Below, piece by piece: positions 1,591 through 64,000 of a stretch of DNA of 64,000 bases. The stretch is from Microgenomates group bacterium ADurb.Bin219. Its GTDB lineage: Bacteria > Patescibacteriota > Microgenomatia > UM-FILTER-40-11. Each line of letters starts with the position of its first letter. Positions within the stretch are counted from its first letter, which is position 1. Location: contig MWCH01000002.1 of assembly GCA_002069945.1 (NCBI GenBank), positions 79,164 to 143,163 of the forward strand, in the 5' to 3' direction. The notes beneath the pieces are model-generated. The model did not search any database, was not told the origin of the DNA, and was given only the letters and a program-made list of their open reading frames with translations. The position numbers were made by a program, and so were the translations under genes.

Positions 1591-2547
1591 ATGAACGTGA
1601 ACACGATTGCCGACATCAAAGATCTGCTGCAAGGTTGTTATCAAGATAAGCCGGCTATTGTTGCCTCGGTCGGCGGCTCGGGAACCTGGGCCATGGACAT
1701 GGCCGGCCCAGGCTTTCCCGAAGGAATGCCGGAAACTGGAGTCAAAACCGCGGTCGCTTTCCGTCAGGTTCAGACTCCCTTCGGTCCAATTCCGGTAGTC
1801 AAGATTTTAATCGTTGACGGTTCCCCGGTTATCCGGATTCCGGTCCACGGCTGGCGTTTCCCCATTCCCAATCTCAACCACACCAATGCGACTTTCTGGC
1901 TGCTCTTCCATCTGGGCATCAAGGAAGTCATCGTTGATGCTAGTGTGGGCGGAATCAAGGCCAAACCTTGGGATGTCGTTGTTCCCGACGATGTTATCAT
2001 CAACAACGAAGCAAAGCTGAAGATCCTTGAACTCACTAGCCAGATTGACGGTGATTCCCGGAAGCGAATGGCAGAACCGTTCTGCCCAACCCTGCGTCAA
2101 TGCTTGATCGCCGCCGTCAAAAGGCTGCCGGGCCTACAAGAAGTTTTTCCTCATGCGCCGCTGGCCGACCTGCACGAAAAGGGCACCTATTACACAATGC
2201 CCTTAACCGTCTTTGAAACCCCGGCGGAGATAAAAGATCTGAAGAAAAGGGGTTTTCTTGTCGTTGGCCAATCTTCCGGCCAGGAAGCTTTGGCCGCCCG
2301 GCTCTGCGGCATGCATTTCGCCGTTGTCAACCCGGTAGTCAACTTCGCCGAAGGCTTGGAAGGAGCCAGCTGGTCGGCAGGAGAAACCATGGCCGATCTT
2401 TACACCAGAATCGCTCCAACAATGGGATTGGTAGTCATTGAAGCCTTGAGGCTCATCCTCCGAACAAAGACCAATTGCCGCTGTTCGGAATATGCCTCAG
2501 CTACCGACCTGACCGTGTTTACCAACTCAACCACCTATCGGGAATAG
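1591..2547 (+). CDS. mtnP: 5'-methylthioadenosine / purine nucleoside phosphorylase family protein (MTAP-like)
   Basis: Motif RMAEPFCPTLRQ matches the MTAP family signature (PMAEPFCP); a second PNP/MTAP-like block is GQSSGQEALAARLCGMHFAVVNPVVN; aggagg RBS. Confidence 0.7.
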   Translation: MNVNTIADIKDLLQGCYQDKPAIVASVGGSGTWAMDMAGPGFPEGMPETGVKTAVAFRQVQTPFGPIPVVKILIVDGSPVIRIPVHGWRFPIPNLNHTNATFWLLFHLGIKEVIVDASVGGIKAKPWDVVVPDDVIINNEAKLKILELTSQIDGDSRKRMAEPFCPTLRQCLIAAVKRLPGLQEVFPHAPLADLHEKGTYYTMPLTVFETPAEIKDLKKRGFLVVGQSSGQEALAARLCGMHFAVVNPVVNFAEGLEGASWSAGETMADLYTRIAPTMGLVVIEALRLILRTKTNCRCSEYASATDLTVFTNSTTYRE

Positions 2548-7462: not shown

Positions 7463-9004
7463 TTATTTTAAACCGTACTTTGCCAAAACCTGATTAATCC
7501 CCATCGCCGCAGTCGCCAGAGAAGATTGACTGTTTTCTCCCCGGCCGATGGCATTAACCGCATCTTCATAATATTTAATTATTTCGTCATTAATACCGTT
7601 ATCGTAAGTCCTTGCGCAAAGATACCAACTCTTGGCTTTTACGGCCTGTTGAATATAGGCGCCGACATATAGCTCGTTGCGTAATAAATCCGCCATGTCC
7701 GTCCGACTATAGGGTTCGCCGAAAAGCCGCAACTGGCTTTGATTTTGATACAGTTTGGCTATCGTCTCTTTGGTAGCAAGAAACTGTAAGAAATCCCAAG
7801 CTTCTTTGGCGTGAGCCGATTTATTGGAGACTCCTTCAACCCAATAACTGGCCCAAGCTAGATCAACACCGGAAAGTTGAGGAACCGGAATAATTTTAAA
7901 CTTCAAGCCGGGGTTCAGGGTTTTAATGTCAAAAACCCGCCAGGACGGGCCGAAATACATCGCCAACCGACCGGAAGCAAAAGAATAGGTTGAAGGAGGT
8001 AAACTGCTGTCCCAAACCCGATGGTCGGAAACAAATTTCAAATAAAAAGAAATGGCATCCGCGGCAAAATTATCCGTCGGGTTGGCCAAATCGGCATTAT
8101 TTTGCAATAACATTAATCCTAAAATCTCGCTCCAATGATCAACATTATTGGTTGTTCCCAAGGCGGCACCGGCCGTTTGAATTTTTCCCGTTGAGTCCCT
8201 TACCGTCAACTCGACTGCCAGTTGGCGAAATTCTTCCCAGGTTTTCGGCGGTAATTTTCCGGCAGTGGCAAAAATGTCCTCATTATAGTAAAGGGCCAAG
8301 CCGTCCATCATCAAAGGTAAACCGACATAGCCGTTAGCCAGTTTCAAATCGGTTCTCGCCACCGGATAATAGGTTCTTTCAAAAGTGGCGGCATCCATAA
8401 CATTAGCCGGCACCGGAGAAAGCAAGTCTCTGAACATTGGTGTCCAGGTATTATGAAAACGAAAGATATCTATTTCCCCCCGATCCAAAGCCGCCCTTAA
8501 ACGCTGGCGGTAATTTTTGGTCGATTCGCCTAAATTCTGGACATAATTGATTTTTACTTTCGGATGAGATTTTTGGTATTCCTCAATAATTCCACTCAAG
8601 GTCGCTGCCGGTTCCCAAAGCCCCCAGTAAGTTAGCGTCACTTCGTTTTCCTTTTTTCCGGTCAGTTTCGGGAGAAGACTGCCAAAAAAGAGAACGATAA
8701 TTCCGATCAAAAATAAAGCGACCGCAAAAACCAAAAGGGTTTTTTTTATGGCTATTTTATTGGCCGGCGGTTCCGGATTTTCCGGTATGACCGGCGCCGG
8801 GGCGGCAACCGTCGGCGAAAAATCGGAAGCCGGAGACGGAGTTACCGATTCGGTATTGGTTTTTTCCACTACAACCTGATTAATTGGCGGCGGAGGGTAA
8901 TCAACCGGAGGCGTCAAATTCGGCGCCGATTCGGTTTGCGGATCAACCTTGGCAAAAAAATCGTTTAAATTACCGGTGTTGTTTTGAGTATCGGTCATCT
9001 TCAA
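7463..9004 (-). CDS. Membrane-anchored ABC transporter substrate-binding protein (family 1, sugar-type)
   Basis: N-terminal Pro-rich region and a single TM helix (LLVFAVALFLIGIIVLFFGSLL); SBP_bac_1-like body (TYWGLWEP..., KINYVQ..., periplasmic-binding fold length). Confidence 0.65.
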   Translation of the reverse strand: MKMTDTQNNTGNLNDFFAKVDPQTESAPNLTPPVDYPPPPINQVVVEKTNTESVTPSPASDFSPTVAAPAPVIPENPEPPANKIAIKKTLLVFAVALFLIGIIVLFFGSLLPKLTGKKENEVTLTYWGLWEPAATLSGIIEEYQKSHPKVKINYVQNLGESTKNYRQRLRAALDRGEIDIFRFHNTWTPMFRDLLSPVPANVMDAATFERTYYPVARTDLKLANGYVGLPLMMDGLALYYNEDIFATAGKLPPKTWEEFRQLAVELTVRDSTGKIQTAGAALGTTNNVDHWSEILGLMLLQNNADLANPTDNFAADAISFYLKFVSDHRVWDSSLPPSTYSFASGRLAMYFGPSWRVFDIKTLNPGLKFKIIPVPQLSGVDLAWASYWVEGVSNKSAHAKEAWDFLQFLATKETIAKLYQNQSQLRLFGEPYSRTDMADLLRNELYVGAYIQQAVKAKSWYLCARTYDNGINDEIIKYYEDAVNAIGRGENSQSSLATAAMGINQVLAKYGLK

Positions 9005-49427: not shown

Positions 49428-49800
49428 GGGGATGACAGGCTTCGACGGAAAGCGCTCTTTTAAAACGGCAAGCCCCCGTTGATTCATCGGGGCTAAACAG
49501 GATCAAAAAATAAAAGTCAACGATACTGTTGATTCCGCAGTCAGCGAGAAATTCGCTGTCAATTACGCATTCGCGTAAACGGCATTCGGTGGGTTTTTTC
49601 TCAACGGAACCTTCCGGGTGTAAACAAAGTTGAGACGTAACCCCGGCGTTTGATTTCACCGGCGGGGCCAAAGATAAAAAAATCTAGCCCGGACTTTCTC
49701 GCCGATTGGATCAGGTTCGGGTGAAAAAATAAATTTCGGCTAAGCTTGTAGAAGTTTTAGAAAAGTCTTTTCGGATCCCGGTTCAATCCCGGGCATCTCC
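49428..49800 (+). ncRNA. ssrA: tmRNA (ssrA), standard one-piece form, directly after smpB
   Basis: 5' GGGGATGACAGGCTTCGACG pairs with 3' CATCTCC as a tRNA-Ala-like acceptor stem including the G3:U wobble; T-arm GGTTCAATCCCGG; candidate tag ORF ...GCAGTCAGCGAGAAATTCGCTGTCAATTACGCATTCGCGTAA (AVSEKFAVNYAFA*). Confidence 0.8.
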
Positions 49801-49959
49801 ACTTTGACTCGCCCTTCGCCATGACTCAAGGCTCGCTTGGTGTAAACACTTTGTCCGGATATAAATATATAAGGGGGTAGAACAAGCGAGTCGAAACCCT
49901 GGGTGAAGTCGAAGGGCTTTCGTCTTAGTTAAGTGTAAAAACAACGAGAGGATAAAAGT

Positions 49960-50984: not shown

Positions 50985-51069
50985 GGAGGGTATCCCGAAC
51001 GGTTGAGGGAATGGTTTGCTAAACCATGGCCGCGAAAGTGGTCGGTGGGTTCGACTCCCACACCCTCCG
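50985..51069 (+). tRNA. tRNA-Ser (anticodon GCT), class II with long variable arm
   Basis: Acceptor GGAGGGT/ACCCTCC, anticodon stem ATGGT/ACCAT with loop TTGCTAA, T-arm GGTGGGTTCGACTCCCAC; position 8 is A (atypical). Confidence 0.7.
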
Positions 51070-51100
51070 CCTTCGGCGGATGCAGTCCGCTATAATTCAA

Positions 51101-51187
51101 GGAGAGGTGCTAGAGTGGTTGAATAGGTCGGTCTTGAAAACCGATATAGCCGCAAGGTTATCGCGAGTTCGAATCTCGCCCTCTCCG
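51101..51187 (+). tRNA. tRNA-Ser (anticodon TGA), class II
   Basis: Acceptor GGAGAGG/CCTCTCC, anticodon stem TCGGT/ACCGA with loop CTTGAAA, T-arm GCGAGTTCGAATCTCGC. Confidence 0.8.
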
Positions 51188-51189
51188 CT

Positions 51190-51236
51190 TTCGCCCGCCA
51201 AAACTTTATGGCGGCGGCGACTGTTGATTTTATTTC
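51190..51236 (+). terminator. Probable rho-independent terminator after the tRNA-Ser pair
   Basis: GC-rich imperfect hairpin GCCCGCCA...TGGCGGCGGC followed by T-rich tract ttgattttatttcc. Confidence 0.3.
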
Positions 51237-51258
51237 CCCTTTCCGTTAGTCTTTAATT

Positions 51259-51900
51259 ATGCCCGAAGAAAATCTGCCCCCATCTCAATTAGAGGGAAAT
51301 CAAACCCCGGAATTATCCGATCCCGAGCCTCAGCCGATTGAAGTAATGGCGGTTCGTCAATTAAAAGTCCTTTTTGCTTGGAAGGCGGCGGTAAGACCCT
51401 TCAAGAAAAGAGATAAGGAATATTGGACAACCGTTTTTGCAATTCTTTTTTTGCTTGTTTTAATTTTGTTTTTCGTTAAAGAGTGGTTTTTGATCGCGGC
51501 GATAATTTCCTTGGCTTTTGTTTATTATGTTCTTTCTACTGTTCCGCCGGAGGAGATTGAATACCGGATTACCAATAAAGGAGTTGCTTTTGAAGATAAA
51601 AGCTATGATTGGGAATATCTTTGGCGTTTTTGGTTTTCCAACAAGTATGATCAAAGATTATTAAATATTGATACCCGGCTAAACCTTCCCGGCCGGTTGC
51701 TTTTTGTTATCAAAAAAGAAAACGAAAAACAGATTAAGGAAATTTTGGAAAAATATTTGCTTAACGAAGAAGCGCCGTTGACTTTCTTTGACAAGGCTTC
51801 GGCCTGGCTGGCCAAAAAAGTTCCTCTAGATTTAGAAGAGAAAGAGGAAAAAAAAGATCCTCCCTCGGGGCCAATTTTACCCACTTCTTCTCCGGCTTAA
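51259..51900 (+). CDS. Hypothetical two-TM membrane protein
   Basis: 213 aa; TMs TTVFAILFLLVLILFFV and FLIAAIISLAFVYYVL; lies between the two tRNA groups. Confidence 0.45.
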   Translation: MPEENLPPSQLEGNQTPELSDPEPQPIEVMAVRQLKVLFAWKAAVRPFKKRDKEYWTTVFAILFLLVLILFFVKEWFLIAAIISLAFVYYVLSTVPPEEIEYRITNKGVAFEDKSYDWEYLWRFWFSNKYDQRLLNIDTRLNLPGRLLFVIKKENEKQIKEILEKYLLNEEAPLTFFDKASAWLAKKVPLDLEEKEEKKDPPSGPILPTSSPA

Positions 51901-51974
51901 CTTTTGAACCTAAATTTTGGTATAATCTAGAGGTTTACCTGGAGTATCTCGACTTTTCTTAGTATAAGTTTGAT

Positions 51975-52049
51975 GTGCCTGTAGCTCAGATTGGATAGAG
52001 CGCAGCCCTGCGGAGGCTGAAGTCGGGCGTTCGAATCGCCCCAGGCACG
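51975..52049 (+). tRNA. tRNA-Arg (anticodon GCG)
   Basis: Acceptor GTGCCTG/CAGGCAC, D-arm GCTCAGATTGGATAGAGC, anticodon stem CAGCC/GGCTG with loop CTGCGGA, T-arm GGGCGTTCGAATCGCCC. Confidence 0.75.
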
Positions 52050-52056
52050 CATTATT

Positions 52057-52138
52057 GGAGGGTGGGCAGGACGGTAATGCGTTGGTTTCGAAAACCAATG
52101 TCCGTAAGGGCTAACAGGTTCGACTCCTGTACCCTCCG
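52057..52138 (+). tRNA. tRNA-Ser (anticodon CGA), class II
   Basis: Acceptor GGAGGGT/ACCCTCC, anticodon stem TTGGT/ACCAA with loop TTCGAAA, long variable arm, T-arm ACAGGTTCGACTCCTGT. Confidence 0.7.
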
Positions 52139-52248
52139 CACTTCGACTTGCATTCCTTTGCAGAGAGCAAGCCGTAAGTACAGTTTGAAGGGCGGCAAGT
52201 CTGGCTTGGCAAAGCCGAAGGATGGTTTACTCCGAACAAACGTGAGGA

Positions 52249-52322
52249 GCGCCCATAGTTTAACGGATAAAATGCTGGGTTCCGGACCCAGAGACTTGGG
52301 GGTTCAATTCCCTCTGGGCGCA
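52249..52322 (+). tRNA. tRNA-Arg (anticodon CCG)
   Basis: Acceptor GCGCCCA/TGGGCGC, anticodon stem CTGGG/CCCAG with loop TTCCGGA, T-loop TTCAATT. Confidence 0.7.
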
Positions 52323-52462
52323 CAAAAGATAGAGAGGAGAGGCCAGAGAACTGAGAAAAGTGTTTTTTTCTTTTACTCCTAATAAGACAGAAATTAACCA
52401 AGTCTCGCTTTTTGCTTCAAAAAAAGATAAAATTATGCTCTAAAGATCAATTTAGTTTACCC

Positions 52463-52552
52463 GGAGAGGTCGCATAGTGGTCGAGTGCACACGCTTGGAG
52501 AGCGTGCAGGGCCGAAAGGCTCTCGAGGGTTCGAATCCCTCTCTCTCCGCCA
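52463..52552 (+). tRNA. tRNA-Ser (anticodon GGA), class II, CCA encoded
   Basis: Acceptor GGAGAGG/TCTCTCC (one G:U), anticodon stem CACGC/GCGTG with loop TTGGAGA, long variable arm, T-arm GAGGGTTCGAATCCCTC, discriminator G + CCA. Confidence 0.8.
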
Positions 52553-56264: not shown

Positions 56265-56762
56265 CTATTGACCTTTGGGCAGACTTTCGCAAGCTTTTCC
56301 ATCCTTGTCGCCGTCAAGTCGGTAAAGATCATTGCCGATTCCGCCGACTTTGAGGAAAAATCTTTGCGCTTCGGGTTGAGTTGAAAAATCGTCGCAATTA
56401 TAATCGCCGGCTTTTTTACCCTTGGTGCTGTCGGTGGTAATATTGCCCAATTTATCAAAAAGAAGATTCCCTTCGGTATCGCGGGAAACTTTTGATTCCT
56501 GAAATGATTTTGTTTCCAAAAGTTTTCCCAAATCCCAATCGTTTTGTGAGACCTCAAGACCCAAAGCCGCCAAAAGGGCGATAAAAGCAACAACCAACGC
56601 CAGTCGAAGTTTTTTGACGAAAATAAAAAGAACGGCGACAATTGCCATCAGGATAATAATCAAAATCAGCCGGAATTTATGCGAACCCCTTAAATTTTGA
56701 GCTTTTGAGGGTTTGTTTTCTTCCTTAATTTCGGGATCGGAATTAACCTTTTCTTTTACCAT
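56265..56762 (-). CDS. Membrane-anchored protein with C-terminal Excalibur (extracellular Ca-binding) domain
   Basis: [20 protein letters not shown] ... ; C-terminus [17 protein letters not shown] ... [13 protein letters not shown]. Confidence 0.5.
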
Positions 56763-56846
56763 AATTAAATTATAGAGTTTAGTTGGTAGATTTCAAGTAA
56801 GCGAATGTAGAAAAGAGAAGACACCCCAAGCGTAAGTTAGAAAGAT

Positions 56847-57872
56847 TTATTTAAGAAGAAACGTTGTTTCAAAAAGATTAAGCAGGTAGCCGATTAAGAC
56901 TATTCCCATTGCGGTTAAGCCAAAAAAGATTGCCAGCAATTGCCACTTCATGATTTTTTTTAGCATCAGGGCTTCGGGTATTGATAAGGTGACGATGGAG
57001 GTCATAAAAGCCAAAGCAGTTCCCAAGGGAACTCCTTTTTTTACCAGTGCTTCCATAATGGGAATTACACTTACGGAATTGGCATAGAGGGGTAACCCCG
57101 AGAGAGTTGCCAGTGGAATAGCCCACCAACTCCTCGTTGATAGATATTTTTCAATTATATTGGCGGGGACAAAACCGTGTATAAGAGCACCGATTCCTAC
57201 GCCCGCGATGACATATGGGAATACATTTTTGGTGATAATTATTGAATCGTGCCAAAAATATTTTACAAGTTCCTTAAAAGGCAAAGATTTTTCGCCATTT
57301 TCTTTTTCAACCTGGATTTTGGATTTAAATTTAAGCAATTCGGTTTTAACATACTTTTCAACTCGCAACTTTTGGATAAGCAGACCACTTAAAATTGCTA
57401 CAGCCATTCCAATCAGATTGTAAAAGATGGTTACTTTCATCCCAAAAAGGGCGGGGAAAAGATACAGCGAAGATTCGTTAACTAAAGGAGAACTAATTAA
57501 AAAAGTAAACGTTACCCCTAAGGGTATTCCTGCTCCCACAAAGCCGATAAATAAAGGAATGGAAGAGCAGGAGCAAAAGGGGGTTATCGCACCCAGCGCC
57601 GCCGCGAAAAAATAATCCAATCCAAACCAACGGCGCCTGGTAAGAAAATCCCTTACTTTTTCCATCGGAAAGTAATAGCGGGTTACCGCCATAAAATAGT
57701 TAATGACAGCCAGCAGCAATCCAATCTTGATGGTATCGTAGATAAAAAAATTAAGAGAGCTGCCGAAATAAGATTGGCTGTCCAAGCCAAGCCATTGATT
57801 GGTTATTAAATTTGCCAATTGTTGGACAAATTGGAATATCTTCATAGTTAGCAATTGCCCCCGCAACTGCAA
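56847..57872 (-). CDS. ArsP-like/DUF318 family permease
   Basis: Polytopic; conserved ITPFCSCSSIPLF motif characteristic of ArsP/DUF318 permeases. Confidence 0.65.
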   Translation of the reverse strand: MQLRGQLLTMKIFQFVQQLANLITNQWLGLDSQSYFGSSLNFFIYDTIKIGLLLAVINYFMAVTRYYFPMEKVRDFLTRRRWFGLDYFFAAALGAITPFCSCSSIPLFIGFVGAGIPLGVTFTFLISSPLVNESSLYLFPALFGMKVTIFYNLIGMAVAILSGLLIQKLRVEKYVKTELLKFKSKIQVEKENGEKSLPFKELVKYFWHDSIIITKNVFPYVIAGVGIGALIHGFVPANIIEKYLSTRSWWAIPLATLSGLPLYANSVSVIPIMEALVKKGVPLGTALAFMTSIVTLSIPEALMLKKIMKWQLLAIFFGLTAMGIVLIGYLLNLFETTFLLK

Positions 57873-58138
57873 TTGCCCGTCTTTGGTTGGCTGGCGATTA
57901 AAGAACCGGATGAGATTGCCTGTTTAATTTTTTCCAAATTCGGGAGAGAACCCACCAGTACCGGTTTGTCATCAACGACCAATACCGGACTTGACATTAT
58001 TCCCATTTGGATAATTTTAGATATGTCGGTTATATATTCTACTTCATCTTTTAAACCGAGTTCTTTTACTGCCTGCTTGGTGGTCTCGAAAAACTGTTTA
58101 CAGGTTGTACAGCCGGAACCCAAAACTTGAATTTTCAT
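57848..58138 (-). CDS. Thioredoxin-fold redox-active disulfide protein 2-like, with C-terminal Cys cluster
   Basis: MKIQVLGSGCTTCKQ N-terminus (CxxC in thioredoxin fold); C-terminal NCSCGGNC. Confidence 0.65.
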   Translation of the reverse strand: MKIQVLGSGCTTCKQFFETTKQAVKELGLKDEVEYITDISKIIQMGIMSSPVLVVDDKPVLVGSLPNLEKIKQAISSGSLIASQPKTGNCSCGGNC

Positions 58139-58164
58139 AATTTTTTTTGTAAATTAAATTATTA

Positions 58165-58281
58165 TTATTTTTTTTCTGCGTTTTCCGAATTTTCTTTTTG
58201 GCCAGAACATTGGCAGTCTTTTCCGCAATCGCAGCCGCAATTGCAGCAGCAACAACATGAACATTTTTTATCGTCTTTCAT
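58165..58281 (-). CDS. Small Cys-rich metallothionein-like peptide (38 aa, 11 Cys); not in the ORF track
   Basis: Manual minus-strand translation MKDDKKCSCCCCCNCGCDCGKDCQCSGQKENSENAEKK*; RBS aaggaggtg 7 nt upstream; ATG shares one base with the ArsR stop (TAATG). Confidence 0.5.
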   Translation of the reverse strand: MKDDKKCSCCCCCNCGCDCGKDCQCSGQKENSENAEKK

Positions 58282-58622
58282 TATTTTTTCACCTCCTTTC
58301 CTGAAATTGTCAGTAAAGCTTTTAAAAAGCGGACGCCTTTAGGCGTCAGCCGGTAATCAATAAATTTTCCCTGTCTTTCTTTTTTAACCATATCGGCCTT
58401 GGTCAGATCCGCCAGGTGGTGGGAAACCAGACTTTGGGAAAGGTCGGTATGTTTTTCCAAATCGCAAACGCAATGATTTTTTTGATAAAGCAAAAATAAA
58501 ATCTCCAGCCGCGATTGAGCAGAAAGAAGAGCCAGATCTTGGCTTAACTTTTTGGTTTCCTTTCCCGCCAAAGAACAACGGCAGTCTTTCGATGAACAAT
58601 GACAGCGCTTAGATATGAACAT
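58281..58622 (-). CDS. ArsR/SmtB family metal-sensing transcriptional repressor with Cys-rich N-terminus
   Basis: HTH LEILFLLYQKNHCVCDLEKHTDLSQSLVSHHLADL (ArsR signature incl. CVC metal site); N-terminal CHCSSKDCRC. Confidence 0.75.
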   Translation of the reverse strand: MFISKRCHCSSKDCRCSLAGKETKKLSQDLALLSAQSRLEILFLLYQKNHCVCDLEKHTDLSQSLVSHHLADLTKADMVKKERQGKFIDYRLTPKGVRFLKALLTISGKEVKK

Positions 58623-58671
58623 ATGTTCATATATTAATTCAAAGATTGGGTTTTGTCAAGAGGAATATTAA

Positions 58672-59547
58672 CTAAATTTCCAAATGAAGAAAGTTGCGGA
58701 CGATTAAACCGATAAAAAAGCTTAAAAAAGCAACCCCAAAACTTAAGGAAAGATTTTCAAGAAATCTTTTTTTGAAAGAAACATCCTGGGTAATGGAGGT
58801 ATATAAGGAAAAAAAGAAAATTATCAGGCCGGCATTGGCTAAGGTTAAAGCAAGGGAAAGGTAATAATTTCGGGAAATAAAATAAGGACTTATCAATAAA
58901 ATTACCGTCATAACGTAGGTAATTCCGGTATATAAAGAAGCCTTTAGCGGGTTGCGGATAGTTTTCTCGCTTTTTGTAGAAAGATATTCGGAAGAGGCCA
59001 TTGATAATGAGGCAGCCAAACCGGTAATTAAGCCGGTAGCGCCGATTAATTGGTTGTTTTGCAGGGCCAAAGTTAATCCGGCTAAGGTTCCGGTCAATTC
59101 AACCAAGGCGTCGCTTGAACCGAGAACAATGGAGCCCATATATTTCAACAAATCCTCGTTTATCAGGCCGACGACCTCTTTTTCGTGCTTTTTTTCTTCA
59201 TCAATAATCCAGGCGAATTCTTTATTGGATTTAGCGAGCTCTTCATAGATATTTCTGATCGCCTCTTCTGTATGCTCCATTACTTTTACCCCAAAAGTCA
59301 GACCAAAAACTTTTCCGAGGTTAGAGTAAAACCAGACGCGCAATTTCTTTTGGCCGACTTCCTTTTGCGTAATATTTTGCCAATATTGGTAGTGTTTTAA
59401 AGAATCTTCAGCTAGATGGGTTAAGGTTTTTTTTGTTTCCTGGTTTTTTACTCTTTTGGTGAGGTTTTTATAGATTTGATATTCGGAGATTTCCAGTTGT
59501 TGGAGGTGAAGAATTTTATCAACGGTTTCTTTTGGAAGCGATTCCAT
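58672..59547 (-). CDS. Ferritin-like domain fused to VIT1/CCC1-family membrane transporter (iron/manganese)
   Basis: N-terminal rubrerythrin/ferritin-like helices (EYQIYKNL ... HLAEDSLKHYQYWQ ... EHTEEAIRNIYEELAK); C-terminal VIT-type TMs with GSSDALVELTGTLAGL and LITGLAASLSMASSEYLSTKSE. Confidence 0.65.
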   Translation of the reverse strand: MESLPKETVDKILHLQQLEISEYQIYKNLTKRVKNQETKKTLTHLAEDSLKHYQYWQNITQKEVGQKKLRVWFYSNLGKVFGLTFGVKVMEHTEEAIRNIYEELAKSNKEFAWIIDEEKKHEKEVVGLINEDLLKYMGSIVLGSSDALVELTGTLAGLTLALQNNQLIGATGLITGLAASLSMASSEYLSTKSEKTIRNPLKASLYTGITYVMTVILLISPYFISRNYYLSLALTLANAGLIIFFFSLYTSITQDVSFKKRFLENLSLSFGVAFLSFFIGLIVRNFLHLEI

Positions 59548-59694
59548 AAAGTAATATTACTACAAATGAAATTTACAATTTAGAAGGCATGATGTATAAT
59601 TTTGAGCGTAGACTAGTTGAGAATTGACCAGAGGTCTTTGAAAATTAAATAAACAAATTTGTACATTGTAACTTATCAATGGTACATTTTTTAA

Positions 59695-59989
59695 TCCCCT
59701 GTAGCTCAATGGTAGAGCGGCTCCCTGTCGAAGAGTAGGCAGCTTCCCGAAGTAATTCGGGTTGAAAAATCTGGCTAATTCGGGGAAGTCCTGAATTTAT
59801 CGAAGGATAATCCCGAGCTAAATTCCGAACGCAATGAAGGACTCGTCCTGAGCTTGCTGAAGGATAAACGTGTAGAGACTATATACCAGAGTCCGATTTT
59901 AATCGGACATAAGATAGTCCAAACCTTTTGGTAACAAGAGGGCTTTTGTAAGGAGAAGGTTAGAGGTTCGAGTCCTCTCGGGGGAGCCA
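59695..59989 (+). tRNA. tRNA-Asn (anticodon GTT, tentative) interrupted by a 220 nt group I intron in the anticodon loop; CCA encoded
   Basis: Exon 1 TCCCCTGTAGCTCAATGGTAGAGCGGCTCCCTGT (59695-59728), exon 2 TAAGGAGAAGGTTAGAGGTTCGAGTCCTCTCGGGGGAGCCA (59949-59989); joined they give a cloverleaf with loop CTGTTAA and T-loop TTCGAGT; one G:A mismatch at 27:43. Confidence 0.65.
59729..59948 (+). ncRNA. Group I self-splicing intron (small, IC3-like) inside the tRNA
   Basis: Conserved core elements: P AATTCGGG(G), Q AATCCCGAGC, R GTAGAGACTATA, S AAGATAGTCC (R GACTA pairs S TAGTC to form P7); IGS GCAG can pair with exon end CTGT giving the U:G at the 5' splice site; intron ends in G. Confidence 0.7.
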
Positions 59990-61564
59990 GATGGGACGCA
60001 GAGGCAACAAAGCGTCCTTTTGTGTTGAATCGTCGGGATTTTTTGTTAGTTCGAATTTTCCATTTTCCAAGTCGTCAATTTTTTCCACTTTCGGACCATT
60101 TGTTTCTATCACTGCTTCGGAGAGTAATTTAAAGGTTTTACTGTAGGTGTAGCTGAGTTTTCCTTCATCAACTGTTAAGGACCCGAAGACAAAGCGGATT
60201 AACGATCTCTGTTCATCGATCATGTCCTTGCTCTTGGCTTCCAGATAAATTTCTTTGGCTCTTTGAGAGAGTTCATAAATGCTCATGCCTAAGTTTAAGA
60301 AGCCAGTGCTGGCATTAGCATGCTTTTTAATCGACCCGGTGATTTCGTCTTTCTCCTCTGAATACTGTTTAAACTTGCGGTTATAAAACTCGGGGGTGAT
60401 TTTCTCATCGAGCTTATCGTCGTAGAGTCTGTCCATTCGTTTCTGCACCGCTTCATAACGGGTGTTCAGCTCGCCCATGGTGTCATTATGATATTCGACT
60501 TCGTCTTTGTGACTTTCCTTTAAGGCTTTACGGAGCCAGTCGGTAATCCGGGCGTTTTTGATACGAAGGTTTTCAAAGCCGCTAATAAGCTGAGATTCGA
60601 CCTCATCTTCTTTGACCCAGGTGGTCTGTGGGCATTCATGATAATGGTTACAATGGCCGTAAATGTATTGACCCTTAGCGATTTCGAAGGTAATGGAATT
60701 GTGGCACCCAGCGCATTTAATCAGTCCTCTAAAGAGAAAGTTGTGCTTGCGGTATTTGGGTGTAGTTCTGCTCGTTAGCATCGCCTGGACCTTATTAAAT
60801 TGCTCAACAGTAATCAATGGCTGGTGTTTACCTTCAAATAGTTCGTCGTTCCATTTGATTTTACCAATATAAAAAGGCTCACGGAGAAGGGAGTGGATCC
60901 GACTGTGTGGCAGCTTGTGTCCTAATTGGGATCTCATGCCTTCGGCGTACATTTTTTTGGAGAGCCGTTTAGTTGAGTAGTTGCCGGTGAGATAGAGTTC
61001 AAACATTTTCCTCACAAAAGGAGCGGTGTCCTCGTCGATGACATGGATTTTATGCCCAGTTTCGCCAATGGTCTTGTAACCGTTTGGTGGTTTGGTTGGT
61101 AGCCAGCCCTGGGCGATTTTCTCTTTCTGTCCTTTCTTAACGTTCTCTGATAATAGTCGTACATAATACTCGGCGGTAGCGACCTTTACTCGCCACATAA
61201 ACCATTCATGGGACCGGGAGGTGTTGTGGAGGATGCAGCCTTCTTTAGCCAAGTGGACCTGATGGGTTTCGTTCTCGGTAATCCAGAGATCAATCATGGG
61301 AACATCGGCAAAGTTCCTGGTCAGCCGGTCCGTAGTCTCAACAATAATGGTGGGGATATCGTGCTTGCGAACATAGGCCACCATCTCGATAAAGACTTTT
61401 CTCTGGGTTTTCCCAGCAGCCGATTCGGAAATGGCAAAGACTTTGGCTACTTCCAATCCTTGTTTCTCAGCATAATCGCGCAAGAACTTCTCCTGGGCTG
61501 GTAATGAGTAGCCCGTGTCTTCTTGTTCTTTGCTGCTGACTCGGCAGAAAATGGCAGTTTTCAT
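59960..61564 (-). CDS. Large serine recombinase (integrase), C-terminal codons overlap the tRNA 3' end
   Basis: N-terminal resolvase catalytic domain (IFCRVSSKEQ with catalytic Ser), recombinase domain, zinc ribbon CAGCHNSITF ... HCNHYHEC, coiled-coil; last 10 codons (WLPREDSNL*) are the reverse complement of tRNA exon 2. Confidence 0.85.
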   Translation of the reverse strand: MKTAIFCRVSSKEQEDTGYSLPAQEKFLRDYAEKQGLEVAKVFAISESAAGKTQRKVFIEMVAYVRKHDIPTIIVETTDRLTRNFADVPMIDLWITENETHQVHLAKEGCILHNTSRSHEWFMWRVKVATAEYYVRLLSENVKKGQKEKIAQGWLPTKPPNGYKTIGETGHKIHVIDEDTAPFVRKMFELYLTGNYSTKRLSKKMYAEGMRSQLGHKLPHSRIHSLLREPFYIGKIKWNDELFEGKHQPLITVEQFNKVQAMLTSRTTPKYRKHNFLFRGLIKCAGCHNSITFEIAKGQYIYGHCNHYHECPQTTWVKEDEVESQLISGFENLRIKNARITDWLRKALKESHKDEVEYHNDTMGELNTRYEAVQKRMDRLYDDKLDEKITPEFYNRKFKQYSEEKDEITGSIKKHANASTGFLNLGMSIYELSQRAKEIYLEAKSKDMIDEQRSLIRFVFGSLTVDEGKLSYTYSKTFKLLSEAVIETNGPKVEKIDDLENGKFELTKNPDDSTQKDALLPLRPIWLPREDSNL

Positions 61565-62331
61565 AGGCTTTGACCTGGCAACACAACATAAACGGAAACT
61601 CGAGCAATATCAAACAGAGAGAAGAAGGGTTCAAATCCGGTCGCATTTGGTCGCAATTGGTAGCATTCCTGGTGTAGCGTTGGTGTAACCTTGGTGTAGC
61701 CATAGGACACTCGTTTGTTGTGGGCTATAAGCGAGTGGGCAATAAATGAGAGGGGTTGGATGACTTGGATAATTGCTGGGTAAAAGGCTCGTAAATCCAC
61801 ACCAGTTTTACCCAAGAATTGCACAACCTTTAATGCCTGTAGATACCGAACCCACACCGAAACCTTGCCGAACCCTGTCATCAACATTTCACCGACAAAC
61901 CGCCGACTTATTTTTGTACCGATTTCATGCTGATTTTGTCCTGATTTATTCAGGTTGAAGTCCATATTTTCTGGGTAATCATTGGGTAACTCTTGGGAAA
62001 CCTTTTTCAGGCTAAATCTCTCATATTTTGGTGTAGGGTTGGTGTAGCTTCGGCGTAGCCTTTGACCGGTTATTTCTGGAGTAATATTGGAGTAAAGTTG
62101 GAGTAATTTATCTGTACTAATTTTGTACGAGCGTTGTCCTAATTTATCTCCAAAATCTGTCCAACTTTTGTCCAAGTATTGTCCAACCTCATTAGCCTTA
62201 AAAGCTGACCAACTTTTGACCAACAATTGACCAACCTTCATCCACATCTCATCCACCTTTTGTCCCACCTTAAAAGGTTCTTTTCCTAGCCAACTTTTAG
62301 CCAAGTTTCGGCCAACCTTGTTTTTCTTCAT
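61561..62331 (-). CDS. Doubtful ORF (256 codons) spanning a dense array of 10-12 bp phased DNA repeats; possibly non-coding or only partly coding
   Basis: Frame stays open largely because the repeat unit lacks stop codons in all minus-strand frames; protein shows irregular KSW/VGQ repeats that simply mirror the DNA repeats; stop overlaps integrase ATG. Confidence 0.25.
   Translation of the reverse strand: MKKNKVGRNLAKSWLGKEPFKVGQKVDEMWMKVGQLLVKSWSAFKANEVGQYLDKSWTDFGDKLGQRSYKISTDKLLQLYSNITPEITGQRLRRSYTNPTPKYERFSLKKVSQELPNDYPENMDFNLNKSGQNQHEIGTKISRRFVGEMLMTGFGKVSVWVRYLQALKVVQFLGKTGVDLRAFYPAIIQVIQPLSFIAHSLIAHNKRVSYGYTKVTPTLHQECYQLRPNATGFEPFFSLFDIARVSVYVVLPGQSL
61639..62320. repeat. Helically phased short direct repeats (iteron/centromere-like): several families at 10-12 bp spacing
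   Basis: GGTCGCATTT/GGTCGCAATT/GGTAGCATTCCT/GGTGTAGCGTT/GGTGTAACCTT/GGTGTAGCC (61639-61701); GGTGTAGGGTT/GGTGTAGCTTC/GGCGTAGCC (62030-62060); TGGAGTAATA/TGGAGTAAAG/TGGAGTAATT (62077-62107); at least 8 copies of TTG(T/A)CCAAC-like units (62150-62320), all at about 11 bp periodicity. Confidence 0.6.
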
Positions 62332-62360
62332 AGCGTTTTCGTTTTGTTAATTATTTTTCG

Positions 62361-62858
62361 TTAAAAACTCCTTCTAGTTAGTTTGTCGTCATCTCGCTTC
62401 TCGCGTATAACACCCGAGTCTATTAACTTAGTCTTGAATTCATCCCAACTACTCGTTTGTTGTTCACGACATACGGGATTTGAGGCGTGGGGAGCAAAGA
62501 TGGTGACGATTGCCTGGTTAAGCAAGTAGGAGTTATTAGCAAAGACATGGACCCCCTTCTTGTTCGTTTGTTTCTTCTTACTGATTTCGATGAGTGGTTT
62601 CCCTTCAAACCGTGCTTTGGCGAGAGAAGTAATTCGTCTGCTGACACTAGCTATACTGCCAAGGCCTAAAATCTGCTTGAGCTTGCTGAGGGAAGGGTGG
62701 CATTCGCCTTTATCATTGATGAATACTGCCAGAGCAGTGAAGGTATGCCATTGATCGGCGCTCACAGAGGCTAAGAGCCCCTTGAAAAAGATGGGGTTTC
62801 TCCAGAATTGGAGATACAAGTTTTCCGTTATTTCTTTTTGTTTCATTGACATATTCAT
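62361..62858 (-). CDS. Hypothetical protein of the integrated element
   Basis: 165 aa ORF with reasonable codon usage; no recognisable motifs. Confidence 0.4.
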   Translation of the reverse strand: MNMSMKQKEITENLYLQFWRNPIFFKGLLASVSADQWHTFTALAVFINDKGECHPSLSKLKQILGLGSIASVSRRITSLAKARFEGKPLIEISKKKQTNKKGVHVFANNSYLLNQAIVTIFAPHASNPVCREQQTSSWDEFKTKLIDSGVIREKRDDDKLTRRSF

Positions 62859-62884
62859 TTATTTGTTTCGGGCTTAAGCTACGT

Positions 62885-63034
62885 GCTGCTCTGTTTGGCT
62901 TCGATCTTCATCGCCGTTTCCGCAAAGCCAATCAAGACCAGGGCAACATCCAAGACTTCCTCTAGTTTTAGCTCTACGCCGTAGTCCTCTTTGAGAATCG
63001 CCCTGAGCTCGAGCAGGAGTTTCTGGCTTACCAT
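62885..63034 (-). CDS. Small hypothetical protein (49 aa), not in the ORF track
   Basis: Manual translation MVSQKLLLELRAILKEDYGVELKLEEVLDVALVLIGFAETAMKIEAKQSST*; start 1 nt after the stop of the upstream gene. Confidence 0.25.
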
Positions 63035-63291
63035 AGGCTCCTTTCGGCGTAGAGGCGCGATTTAATATCTCTTAACTGGTTAAAGAAAGTCTGGGGTGAG
63101 ATCTTGAGTTCGTTGCGAAAGTAGCCCTCAACGAGTTCTTCCAGTTCTGGGGATCGGAAGAAAACGAAGACGGCTTTGTGGGGATTGGACCGATCAATGT
63201 CTTGGATAGGAAACTGAAGGGAAATGGTAGTGGCTAAAGCTAAGTCACTGGTAACGTAAGTGTCGGAGTTTATTTGCTGATTCATAGTCAT
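63028..63291 (-). CDS. Hypothetical small protein of the integrated element
   Basis: 87 aa ORF; no recognisable motifs. Confidence 0.35.
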   Translation of the reverse strand: MTMNQQINSDTYVTSDLALATTISLQFPIQDIDRSNPHKAVFVFFRSPELEELVEGYFRNELKISPQTFFNQLRDIKSRLYAERSLW

Positions 63292-63488
63292 TTAATCGAA
63301 CTAGAATCAGTCTAGGAAAAAAGTTGTGTCCGTCTCAATAAACTTTGTGGTGATTTATGTTTACCTTTGTAAACAACGCGTATTATTTAAGTTGAGGTAT
63401 CTTGAAAAATAAATTGATTTGACAATCTCTTGTGAAGGAAGCTAACATCTCGACACGTTATTAGTTAGCCCTTGAGGAGTATAAAAAT

Positions 63489-64000
63489 ATGACAATGAAA
63501 ATAATTCAAAACAAACCCCTGGCTATTGCCTTCGTTTTCCTGGTATTACTTGGTTCTGCTTTCTGGCTGATTCAGCCTAAGACTCAGTCCGTTAAGGTTC
63601 AACAAGCCCAGGACCAAAAACTCCAACAAATTAAAGAGCTTACAGACCTGGCTAATAATGACCCTAAATATCGTGAGCATAACTCTCAAGCCAGCCGTGA
63701 ATTGTCTGACAAGCTCTGCTCTTTGACTGCTCGTTCTGCAGAAGAGCGGGAGAAAGCGGTGGCTGCTGTCCGTGATTTTCTGGAAATGCCCACAGTCAAT
63801 GTGAAGTATGAATGTAACGACGCTTTCTATAATCTGGAAGAGGACCGACTTATCGCTGCCAAGAGTGAAACCTACTTGGTAGATTCCACCTATTTTGTCG
63901 TGAATTCTGTAACAAACCATATCATGCAAGTGGATGAAACTCCTGGGACATGGGGATACAAAGCCGATGGCTCCCGTTGGTTTAGCGATCAGAAACAGTA
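63489..64000 (+). CDS. Partial CDS (N-terminal 170 codons) of a membrane-anchored/secreted hypothetical protein, running off the window end
   Basis: ATG at 63489 after AT-rich promoter-like region; N-terminal TM LAIAFVFLVLLGSAFWLI; open to the end of the window, so absent from the ORF track; the overlapping minus-strand ORF 63546-63929 is probably spurious. Confidence 0.4.
   Translation, partial: MTMKIIQNKPLAIAFVFLVLLGSAFWLIQPKTQSVKVQQAQDQKLQQIKELTDLANNDPKYREHNSQASRELSDKLCSLTARSAEEREKAVAAVRDFLEMPTVNVKYECNDAFYNLEEDRLIAAKSETYLVDSTYFVVNSVTNHIMQVDETPGTWGYKADGSRWFSDQKQ

Follow-up and report, generated by a model that had tools for sequence, protein, structure and literature searches.

Group I introns interrupting the tRNA genes of bacteria are classically found in tRNA-Leu(UAA), tRNA-fMet, tRNA-Ile(CAU) and tRNA-Arg(CCU). 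A preprint in which 80,413 bacterial genomes were scanned extended these four classes to 21 (Williams 2020, bioRxiv 10.1101/2020.01.27.920355). In its nomenclature, '4Ug' stands for insertion behind the fourth nucleotide of the anticodon loop, the intron being preceded by U and terminated by G, and its seed alignment contains Pam37.Asn.4Ug and Wba81.Asp.4Ug. Lui et al. (PMC8172020) report that some tRNAs in a set of circularised genomes, 34 of 36 of which belong to the candidate phyla radiation (CPR), contain group I introns and are hard to detect. In the literature searched, we found no peer-reviewed description specifically of a group I intron in a CPR tRNA-Asn gene. Here we analyse such a locus in a stretch of 64,000 nucleotides (nt) from Microgenomates group bacterium ADurb.Bin219 (GCA_002069945.1, contig MWCH01000002.1, positions 79,164 to 143,163), called the window below. 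We conclude, with a probability of roughly 0.9, that it holds the tRNA-Asn(GUU) gene of a CPR bacterium, interrupted between U35 and U36 by a compact group I intron of the bacterial-tRNA (IC3-like) type, 220 nt long and devoid of an open reading frame (ORF), which is predicted to be spliced by group I chemistry. The class itself is already catalogued in the preprint's alignment, under Asn.4Ug and Asp.4Ug, and the window copy is a new instance of it.

The tRNA-Asn(GUU) gene extends from 59695 to 59989 and is cut in the anticodon loop, as follows:

59695-59728, plus strand: 5' exon, ending in CTGT, with the 5' strand of the acceptor stem, the D arm, the 5' strand of the anticodon stem and loop nucleotides C32 U33 G34 U35 (ARAGORN on the spliced sequence; exon kept in 30 relatives)
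59729-59948, plus strand: group I intron of 220 nt, ORF-less (Rfam model RF00028 above threshold; boundaries from the exons, P1 and the terminal G)
59949-59989, plus strand: 3' exon, starting with TAAGGAGA and ending in GCCA, with U36 A37 A38, the 3' strand of the anticodon stem, the variable loop, the T arm, the 3' strand of the acceptor stem, the discriminator G and an encoded CCA (ARAGORN)

Once the two exons are joined, ARAGORN recognises a 75-nt tRNA-Asn(gtt) with a 7-bp acceptor stem, a 4-bp D stem, a 5-bp T stem, the 7-nt loop CU-GUU-AA, discriminator G and encoded CCA; the halves thus do assemble into a standard tRNA, as had been claimed in an earlier reading of the sequence (the original prediction). 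The product aligns colinearly and over its full length with annotated E. coli tRNA-Asn genes (75% identity). Both the host, tRNA-Asn(GUU), and the insertion point behind the fourth nucleotide of the loop, where a U precedes the intron and a G closes it (CUGU/...G/UAA), are those of the Asn.4Ug class of Williams (2020). No intron-free tRNA is called by ARAGORN in the unspliced DNA of the locus: its default scan of the window reports a tmRNA and six tRNAs (Ser, Arg), none of them at the split locus, and no other tRNA-Asn in the 64 kb.

The intervening sequence scores 64.8 bits with RF00028 (Intron_gpI), whose gathering score is 50 (E = 3.6e-14 over the 64-kb window); this is far beyond chance, and the window has no other group I match to Rfam. 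The model recognises the group I core (P3-P8, including both the P3/P7 pseudoknot and the P4-P6 domain), whose helices are 90 to 100% paired in 30 homologues. It places P3-P9 sensibly and misplaces P1 and P2 upstream of the tRNA. The 5' end of its match, at 59641, was therefore rejected as an intron boundary, the P1/P2 part of the model being aligned there over an insertion exceeding 70 nt; the true boundaries were taken from the exons, the pairing in P1, the terminal G and comparison with relatives. When the intron alone is folded by free energy, P1, P2, P3, P4, P5, P6a/b, P8 and P9 are obtained (-66.3 kcal/mol, z = -2.9 relative to 200 shuffles). No ORF is present within 59729-59948, so that the window copy encodes no homing endonuclease. 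The elements are:

59725-59742, plus strand: P1 hairpin, with exon CUGU and intron C as 5' strand (59725-59729) and the guide GGCAG as 3' strand (59738-59742) (covariation; minimum-free-energy fold)
59746-59761, plus strand: P2 hairpin, 6 bp, GUAA tetraloop at 59752-59755 (compensatory changes; minimum-free-energy fold)
59770-59774, plus strand: P3 5' strand UCUGG, pairing with CCAGA at 59886-59890 (compensatory changes)
59776-59816, plus strand: J3/4 UAA (59776-59778), P4 (59780-59785 with 59811-59816), P5 (59788-59792 with 59804-59808) and J5/4 AA (59809-59810), holding the classical P and Q elements (P4 invariant, P5 covarying; aligned to P4/P5 of RF00028)
59777-59784, plus strand: P element AATTCGGG (a second copy, at 59754-59761, is merely the P2 3' strand)
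59809-59818, plus strand: Q element AATCCCGAGC
59817-59871, plus strand: P6 (GC 59817-59818 with GU 59870-59871), P6a (59824-59826 with 59862-59864) and the distal P6b hairpin (59835-59852) (P6a covarying, P6 invariant; P6a and P6b in the minimum-free-energy fold)
59872-59883, plus strand: R element GTAGAGACTATA
59875-59881, plus strand: P7 5' strand, G, bulged A 59876 and GACUA (paired in 30/30, invariant)
59886-59890, plus strand: P3 3' strand CCAGA (covariation count)
59891-59908, plus strand: P8 hairpin, 7 bp (compensatory changes; minimum-free-energy fold)
59909-59920, plus strand: J8/7 AUAAGA and P7 3' strand UAGUCC (59915-59920), the classical S element (invariant in the family)
59911-59920, plus strand: S element AAGATAGTCC
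59924-59941, plus strand: P9 hairpin, 7 bp, GUAA tetraloop at 59931-59934, followed by GCUUUUG (compensatory changes)
59948, plus strand: terminal G (omega G), last intron nucleotide (invariant in the 30 aligned sequences and in all resolved metagenome copies)

P3 (UCUGG/CCAGA) encloses P4-P6 and the 5' strand of P7, and P4 is formed by UCGGGG/UCCCGA. The sequence of P7 (G59875-C59920, bulged A59876, G59877-C59919) is present and paired in all 30 relatives, and, by what is established for group I introns, G59877-C59919 would be the pair that binds guanosine. The P, Q, R and S elements named in the original prediction are all where it put them, and the two computational checks that it proposed, by covariance model and by secondary-structure modelling, came out in its favour: RF00028 passes its gathering score, and P1-P9, including the P3/P7 pseudoknot, are supported by fold, homology and covariation. 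With regard to the subgroup, the presence of P2, the lack of P5abc and a simple P9 fit IC3, and two core blocks match the IC3 seeds of Williams' alignment, whereas J3/4, P6, J7/3 and J8/7 consistently differ.

To collect relatives, one genome per GTDB species was scanned with two motifs flanking P7 (TGTAGAGACTA and TAAGATAGTCC, separated by 24 to 54 nt), which gave 31 loci; the same scan of metagenome contigs gave 84 stretches, of which 80 (L044-L123) were analysed. At each locus all U...G splice combinations were formed, and a junction was kept if ARAGORN accepted the product with the junction in the loop. Among the GTDB loci, 29 are tRNA-Asn(GUU) genes split after U35, one is a tRNA-Asp(GUC) gene with the same junction, in a complete Woesebacteria genome (CP011214.1), and one is cut by a contig end. 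Other complete CPR genomes among the matches include JACPKY010000002.1 and CAWJTN010000001.1. The 80 metagenome loci comprise 53 tRNA-Asn and 4 tRNA-Asp genes, all with this junction, and one doubtful call, the rest being contig ends or of a phage tRNA-Leu type. The two scans together thus resolve 82 split tRNA-Asn and 5 split tRNA-Asp genes, in all of which the intron follows loop position 4, is preceded by U and ends in G. Such an insertion had been expected to be uncommon; within the CPR it is not, given that tRNA-Asn with the same site accounts for 29 of 31 GTDB matches and 53 of the 58 resolvable metagenome matches.

A total of 30 pre-tRNAs were aligned with MAFFT (alignment A1), and 73 base pairs were counted, including those of the four tRNA stems. 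Standard pairs are formed in 94.8% of pair cells, compared with 35 to 46% when the 3' partners are slid by 1 to 3 columns. Compensatory changes occur in 44 of the 73 pairs, and none of 500 shuffles reached any of the observed measures. They affect P2 (6 of 6 pairs), P3 (3 of 5), P6a (3 of 3), P8 (7 of 7) and P9 (6 of 7), as well as P5. Paired cells amount to 97.8% in P2, 99.3% in P3 and 97.6% in P9, and to 78.7% in P8, where lengths vary in the MAFFT alignment. That the peripheral helices have been kept by compensatory changes across some 30 lineages argues for selection on the fold.

The same alignment fixes both splice sites. In P1, the four pairs that involve the exon do not vary among the 30 sequences, as is required of a GUU or GUC loop. 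The fifth pair, between the first intron nucleotide and the guide, covaries (CG in 19 cases, AU in 4, UG in 4, GC in 2 and GU in 1), and the 5' splice site is thereby fixed independently of the tRNA argument. At the other end, none of the 30 sequences departs from T253 and G254 of the pre-tRNA, and the base that follows is U in the tRNA-Asn genes and C in the tRNA-Asp gene, completing GUU or GUC; this switch immediately after the terminal G fixes the 3' splice site. The internal guide GCAG (59739-59742) places a wobble pair, U35·G (59728:59739), at the 5' splice site, and this U·G is found in 30 of 30 relatives. The guide with its U:G, the final G and the insertion between anticodon positions 35 and 36 had all been part of the original prediction, and the homologous pre-tRNAs pin each of them down. 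A junction elsewhere in the loop, which would yield a different anticodon, is suggested by the intron mode of ARAGORN, which proposes a tRNA-Val(aac) with a 205-nt intron at position 32/33, and brute-force splicing produces many formally foldable alternatives. However, only CUGU/UAA provides a U·G at the 5' site together with a G at the intron end, is backed by the covarying P1 pair and gives a 7-nt loop and a 75-nt tRNA in all relatives; moreover, the same rule applied to the tRNA-Asp hosts gives GUC with matching Asp-type exons. A different junction is therefore extremely improbable in our view. The tRNA-Val(aac) candidate, having neither U·G nor terminal G at its sites and not being conserved, was rejected as implausible.

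Several observations weigh against a spliced intron of the kind described. Guanosine-initiated self-splicing, which would restore the GUU anticodon, is something that we infer from the sequence, namely from its complete and maintained group I anatomy. P1 consists of 5 pairs only, and the search for a convincing P10 yielded at most 2 bp. P4, P6 and P7 are invariant in the sample, partly, for P7, because the search pattern fixed it, so that these helices rest on the Rfam model and on homology rather than on covariation. Finally, the spliced tRNA has one blemish: the topmost pair of the anticodon stem is a G27·A43 mismatch, which is kept in 28 of 30 relatives and hence looks like a trait of the lineage rather than damage.

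Could the intron be a decayed relic that no longer splices, the split gene being a tRNA pseudogene and translation relying on another tRNA-Asn elsewhere in the genome? The indirect nature of the evidence for splicing and the weak P10 would fit such a view, as would the lack of an endonuclease ORF in the intron and the fact that the segment from 56758 on, split gene included, is absent from this position in strains with 99% identical RpoD, that is, lies in a variable region. Yet all core elements are intact and identical to the family consensus, the pairing of the peripheral helices has been kept by compensatory changes over about 30 lineages, and the exons give a tRNA that is otherwise flawless and has an encoded CCA. 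In addition, a strong promoter-like site is found upstream, and there is no second tRNA-Asn within the 64-kb window. On balance, we consider a relic very unlikely. The promoter candidate is:

59572-59600, plus strand: sigma-70-like promoter candidate TTTACA-17-TATAAT, ending some 95 nt before the tRNA (11 of 12 positions agree in a consensus scan; a pattern match, with the function predicted)

Closer to the gene, GTACATT at 59679-59685, about 10 nt upstream of the 5' end of the tRNA-Asn, is conserved in five relatives (L026, L027, L029, L037, L041). In relatives a TAAAAT or TATAAT box precedes it, and the motif may represent a transcription start region or a leader motif.

If the intron is spliced as we propose, the following pathway can be envisaged. 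In the precursor, P1 would arise by pairing of C32-U35 and the first intron base with the guide GGCAG. The bond after U35, which is the U in the U·G wobble, would then be attacked by a free guanosine docked in P7 at G59877-C59919, and the terminal G59948 would next occupy that P7 site. Attack of the freed 3'-OH of U35 on the bond after G59948 would join the exons (CU-GUU-AA) and release the intron. The GUAA tetraloops of L2 and L9 probably clamp the fold by docking in helical receptors, as in the Azoarcus intron. In this connection, the window intron has two copies of a module CCUGAR...YGAAGG, made up of a CC/GG helix, one U-A pair and tandem G·A pairs: one in P5 (59788-59808) and the other, inverted, in P6b (59835-59852). 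The module is also seen in P5 of many relatives and in the 60-nt P1-loop insert of two of them (L015 and L042), while members with a GAAA L9 loop tend to have a P5 of the CCUAAG or CCUUAA type instead. To judge from these sequences, the module may be a receptor for GUAA tetraloops.

Matches to the intron family come almost wholly from genomes or metagenomes of Patescibacteria (CPR). The named GTDB hosts are all Patescibacteria (Gottesman-, Woese-, Davies-, Levy-, Roizman- and Yanofsky-bacteria, Paceibacterota). The remaining GTDB loci are labelled 'uncultured Gammaproteobacteria bacterium' in third-party assemblies (L014, L015, L019, L021 and others). All those that were resolved have the same split tRNA-Asn, and several loci with this label (for example L021, L031, L032, L038) also have the dnaG-rpoD order, with RpoD 63 to 72% identical to that of the window; given the shared split tRNA and the CPR gene order, the label is probably wrong. 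The 72 distinct introns of the two scans measure 173 to 289 nt when ORF-less and 520 to 543 nt when ORF-bearing. At 220 nt, the window copy is not especially small for its family, although it had been ranked among the smallest group I introns. The shortest members (L077, L075, L099 and L017, with 173, 176, 178 and 179 nt) are below the 205 nt of the Azoarcus intron, and in one of these four, L017, the full set of core helices was recognised by eye. A rough neighbour-joining tree was built from 70 introns; the four from tRNA-Asp that it includes group together, and the intron of the window has its nearest relative in a metagenome copy (L108, 83% identity over 186 core columns).

These data lead us to a broader proposal, which we hold tentatively, as one that may well prove wrong: a single lineage of very small natural group I ribozymes (down to 173-179 nt, compared with the 205-nt Azoarcus intron) would have spread through the Patescibacteria by way of the CUGU loop common to tRNAs with G34-U35 anticodons, with at least one move between tRNA-Asn and tRNA-Asp, and would interrupt the sole tRNA-Asn gene in many reduced genomes.

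Phages are a further source of group I cores. A looser motif scan of viral contigs gave 11 matches, with no tRNA-Asn intron among them. Four are the tRNA-Leu(UAA) intron of large phages (L005, L007, L008, L012), and the other seven were discarded as chance matches inside coding sequence. The phage contigs concerned are 105 to 166 kb long, contain tRNA arrays and come from IMG/VR sample 3300045988; our splicing script places their junction after U33, and Rfam does not report these four introns at its gathering threshold. A human-gut contig (L089) belongs to the same phage tRNA-Leu intron group and has 166,340 bp, as does the contig of L012. When the pre-tRNA was compared by blastn with 50,697 phage genomes, no match to the intron was obtained, only a 47-nt match of the 5' exon to tRNA-Asp genes of Arthrobacter phages. 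Another metagenome contig (L105, 1250-2050, minus strand) carries three group I cores in tandem, about 290 nt apart, without a recognisable tRNA; they may mark a heavily intron-invaded gene.

The question of mobility was approached with a sample that is blind to the intron: contigs of RpoD homologues, nine loci in all, were scanned for tRNAs and Rfam families. One of them (L131, RpoD 87% identical) represents an empty site, its tRNA-Asn(GUU) being uninterrupted and some 620 nt downstream of rpoD. Another (L137, 7464-8090, RpoD 75%) has its tRNA-Asn interrupted at the same place as in the window by an intron whose core is of a second, clearly different type (GCAGAGACUA ... GAUGAGAUAGUCC, 88.6 bits with Rfam); this intron matches the Pam37.Asn.4Ug seed of the Williams preprint. 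In this locus (by eye) and in three of the family (L043, L056, L083), the P1 loop contains an ORF of about 106-108 codons with the motif CxxC..HH..CANCHREIH. The Pfam HNH model gives this ORF family 19.9 bits, just below its cut-off of 21.4, and we call it HNH-like. Empty, ORF-less and ORF-bearing states of the tRNA-Asn insertion site are thus all found, as in the usual life cycle of a homing intron, with the window copy at the ORF-less stage. HNH-like ORFs in relatives, together with an empty site in a close relative, indicate that the intron family is, or formerly was, mobile; the window copy, without an endonuclease gene, would now be inherited passively. One homing site and one endonuclease family are thus common to two ribozyme lineages (L137 as opposed to L043 and L056). 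The intronless tRNA-Asn of L131 is followed directly by a T-box leader (7898-8185, 100.8 bits).

Apart from the intron, the window is an ordinary bacterial chromosome according to Pfam (DnaG, RpoD, pyruvate phosphate dikinase, DUF4012), and its RpoD is 100% identical to the sigma factor of Microgenomates group bacterium ADurb.Bin219 and 99% identical to proteins named Candidatus Woesebacteria. The DNA stems from an anaerobic digester, and the contig is also present in DNA run SRR17648133. A tblastn search with the window ORFs found the order dnaG-rpoD-tRNA-Asn(intron) in at least 12 of the 31 genome loci (RpoD 63 to 72% identical), so that in at least 12 CPR genomes an intron-bearing tRNA-Asn lies a few hundred bases downstream of rpoD. 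This shared order indicates that the split gene is the ancestral chromosomal tRNA-Asn at its usual place. In five of the nine RpoD-sampled loci no tRNA-Asn was found within 6 kb; the order is therefore common, not universal.

Alternatively, the split gene might be an accessory tRNA-Asn carried by a mobile genomic island rather than the housekeeping copy, which would be compatible with a functional intron. Between rpoD and the tRNA, 3.4 kb with minus-strand genes at 56758-59547 (ArsP permease, thioredoxin, ArsR, VIT1/rubrerythrin) have been inserted, and the match of two strains with 99% identical RpoD (L129, L130) to the window stops at 56757, which makes everything beyond, including the tRNA, variable between strains. 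On the other side, a recombinase gene overlaps the tRNA, with defence genes next to it:

59960-61564, minus strand: large serine recombinase gene, 534 codons, convergent with the tRNA-Asn, its last 10 codons overlapping the 3' 30 nt of the tRNA

Two observations nevertheless make an accessory gene unlikely. The intron-bearing tRNA-Asn close behind rpoD in the 12 or more other CPR genomes, and the intronless one in the same place in L131, speak for an ancestral gene in its ancestral place; and the recombinase lies outside the tRNA, on its 3' side, where it should be if integration targets the tRNA instead of carrying it as cargo. In L130, the place of the metal-resistance genes of the window is taken by an rve transposase followed by rpsB-tsf. 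Homologous recombinases (25 to 30% identity) occupy the same convergent position next to an intron-bearing tRNA-Asn in seven other CPR genomes (L015, L016, L017, L031, L033, L036, L043), which suggests that serine-recombinase islands repeatedly use the 3' end of this tRNA-Asn as an attachment site. Past the recombinase (61561-64000, continued in L128 1-10000), the island encodes DUF5659, HTH_17 (excisionase-like), RhuM and DUF87 ATPase proteins, as well as a restriction-modification pair made of an HSDR/DEAD helicase and an N6_Mtase/Eco57I/Methylase_S fusion. The 10 kb available were searched for a repeated tRNA 3' end, which would show where the island stops on the far side, and contained none. 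On the 5' side, partial duplicates of the 5' end of the tRNA-Asn and its leader, broken by unrelated sequence, are seen just upstream of the real gene in L036 (around 1930-2060, minus strand) and L039, and may be scars of earlier insertions. Farther upstream, the window contains a one-piece tmRNA (49428-49804, tag VNDTVDSAVSEKFAVNYAFA) and, before dnaG-rpoD, four tRNA-Ser and two tRNA-Arg genes (50985-52552); the same cluster precedes dnaG in most of the RpoD-selected CPR loci (L129, L133, L135, L136, L137).

In its kind, the intron is in no respect unexpected, being of a type common in the CPR. Its consequences are of several orders. If it does interrupt the sole tRNA-Asn gene, translation would depend on the activity of a ribozyme. 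For annotation, standard tRNA finders miss the split gene (with default settings, ARAGORN called no tRNA-Asn in the window), so that the genome would appear to be without tRNA-Asn, which distorts completeness estimates of CPR metagenome assemblies. For RNA biology, many natural compact ribozymes (173-220 nt) with rich covariation become available, as possible alternatives to the Azoarcus model. As for evolution, an empty allele, ORF-less and ORF-bearing introns and a second core type at one site constitute a tidy system for the study of gain and loss in reduced genomes. Specialists may note the very small members, the CUGU target common to Asn and Asp tRNAs, the possible GUAA receptors and the serine-recombinase islands that reuse the 3' end of the tRNA.

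Within the alignment of the Williams preprint, the Asn.4Ug class has the same host tRNA and insertion point as the window intron (CUGU/.../UAA), with U before and G at the end. The closest likeness is with its Asp seed: Wba81.Asp.4Ug shares with the window intron the GGCAG guide, the GUAA loop L2 and the blocks CUAAUUCGGGGAA, GUGUAGAGACUAUAUACC and AUAAGAUAGUCC, and to judge from these sequences the two clearly belong to the same intron lineage. The Asn seed, Pam37, represents the second core type (GCAGAGACUA ... AUGAGAUAGUCC), the one found at the same site in L137. Compared with these seeds, the window copy is a separate instance in a different genome, with an extended P6 and a P5 containing tandem G·A pairs.

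The tRNA-Ile(CAU) intron of Azoarcus sp. BH72 (IC3, 205 nt; Aol6.Ile2.5Ug) is, like the window intron, compact and ORF-less, lies in the anticodon loop of a bacterial tRNA and has a short P1. Both have GNRA-capped P2 and P9 and no P5abc, and the blocks AAUUCGG.GAA and GUGUAGAGACUA are conserved between them. They differ by the site, after loop position 5 of tRNA-Ile in Azoarcus and after position 4 of tRNA-Asn in the window, and by several core segments: J3/4 is UAA in the window and AAA in Azoarcus, J7/3 UAUA and GAC, J8/7 AUAAGA and AAGGCA, and the tetraloops GUAA and GAAA, respectively. P6 consists of GC/GU with a UAAA internal loop in the window, and of GCC-AAG...GGU in Azoarcus.

The tRNA-Leu(UAA) intron of cyanobacteria and plastids (Leu.3Ug) and its phage variant are likewise group I introns of the anticodon loop that are preceded by U and end in G, and the phage introns carry the exact P7 motifs used in our family search. 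Their tRNA and junction are different, however, and the tRNA-Leu(UAA) intron has long been studied and is largely inherited vertically in cyanobacteria. Lastly, the group I introns with homing endonucleases in CPR 16S and 23S rRNA genes (for example PMC11270868) occur in the same bacterial group and also interrupt structural RNA genes. These usually encode LAGLIDADG enzymes, whereas the window intron resides in a tRNA gene and is ORF-less, and the ORFs of its relatives are HNH-like.

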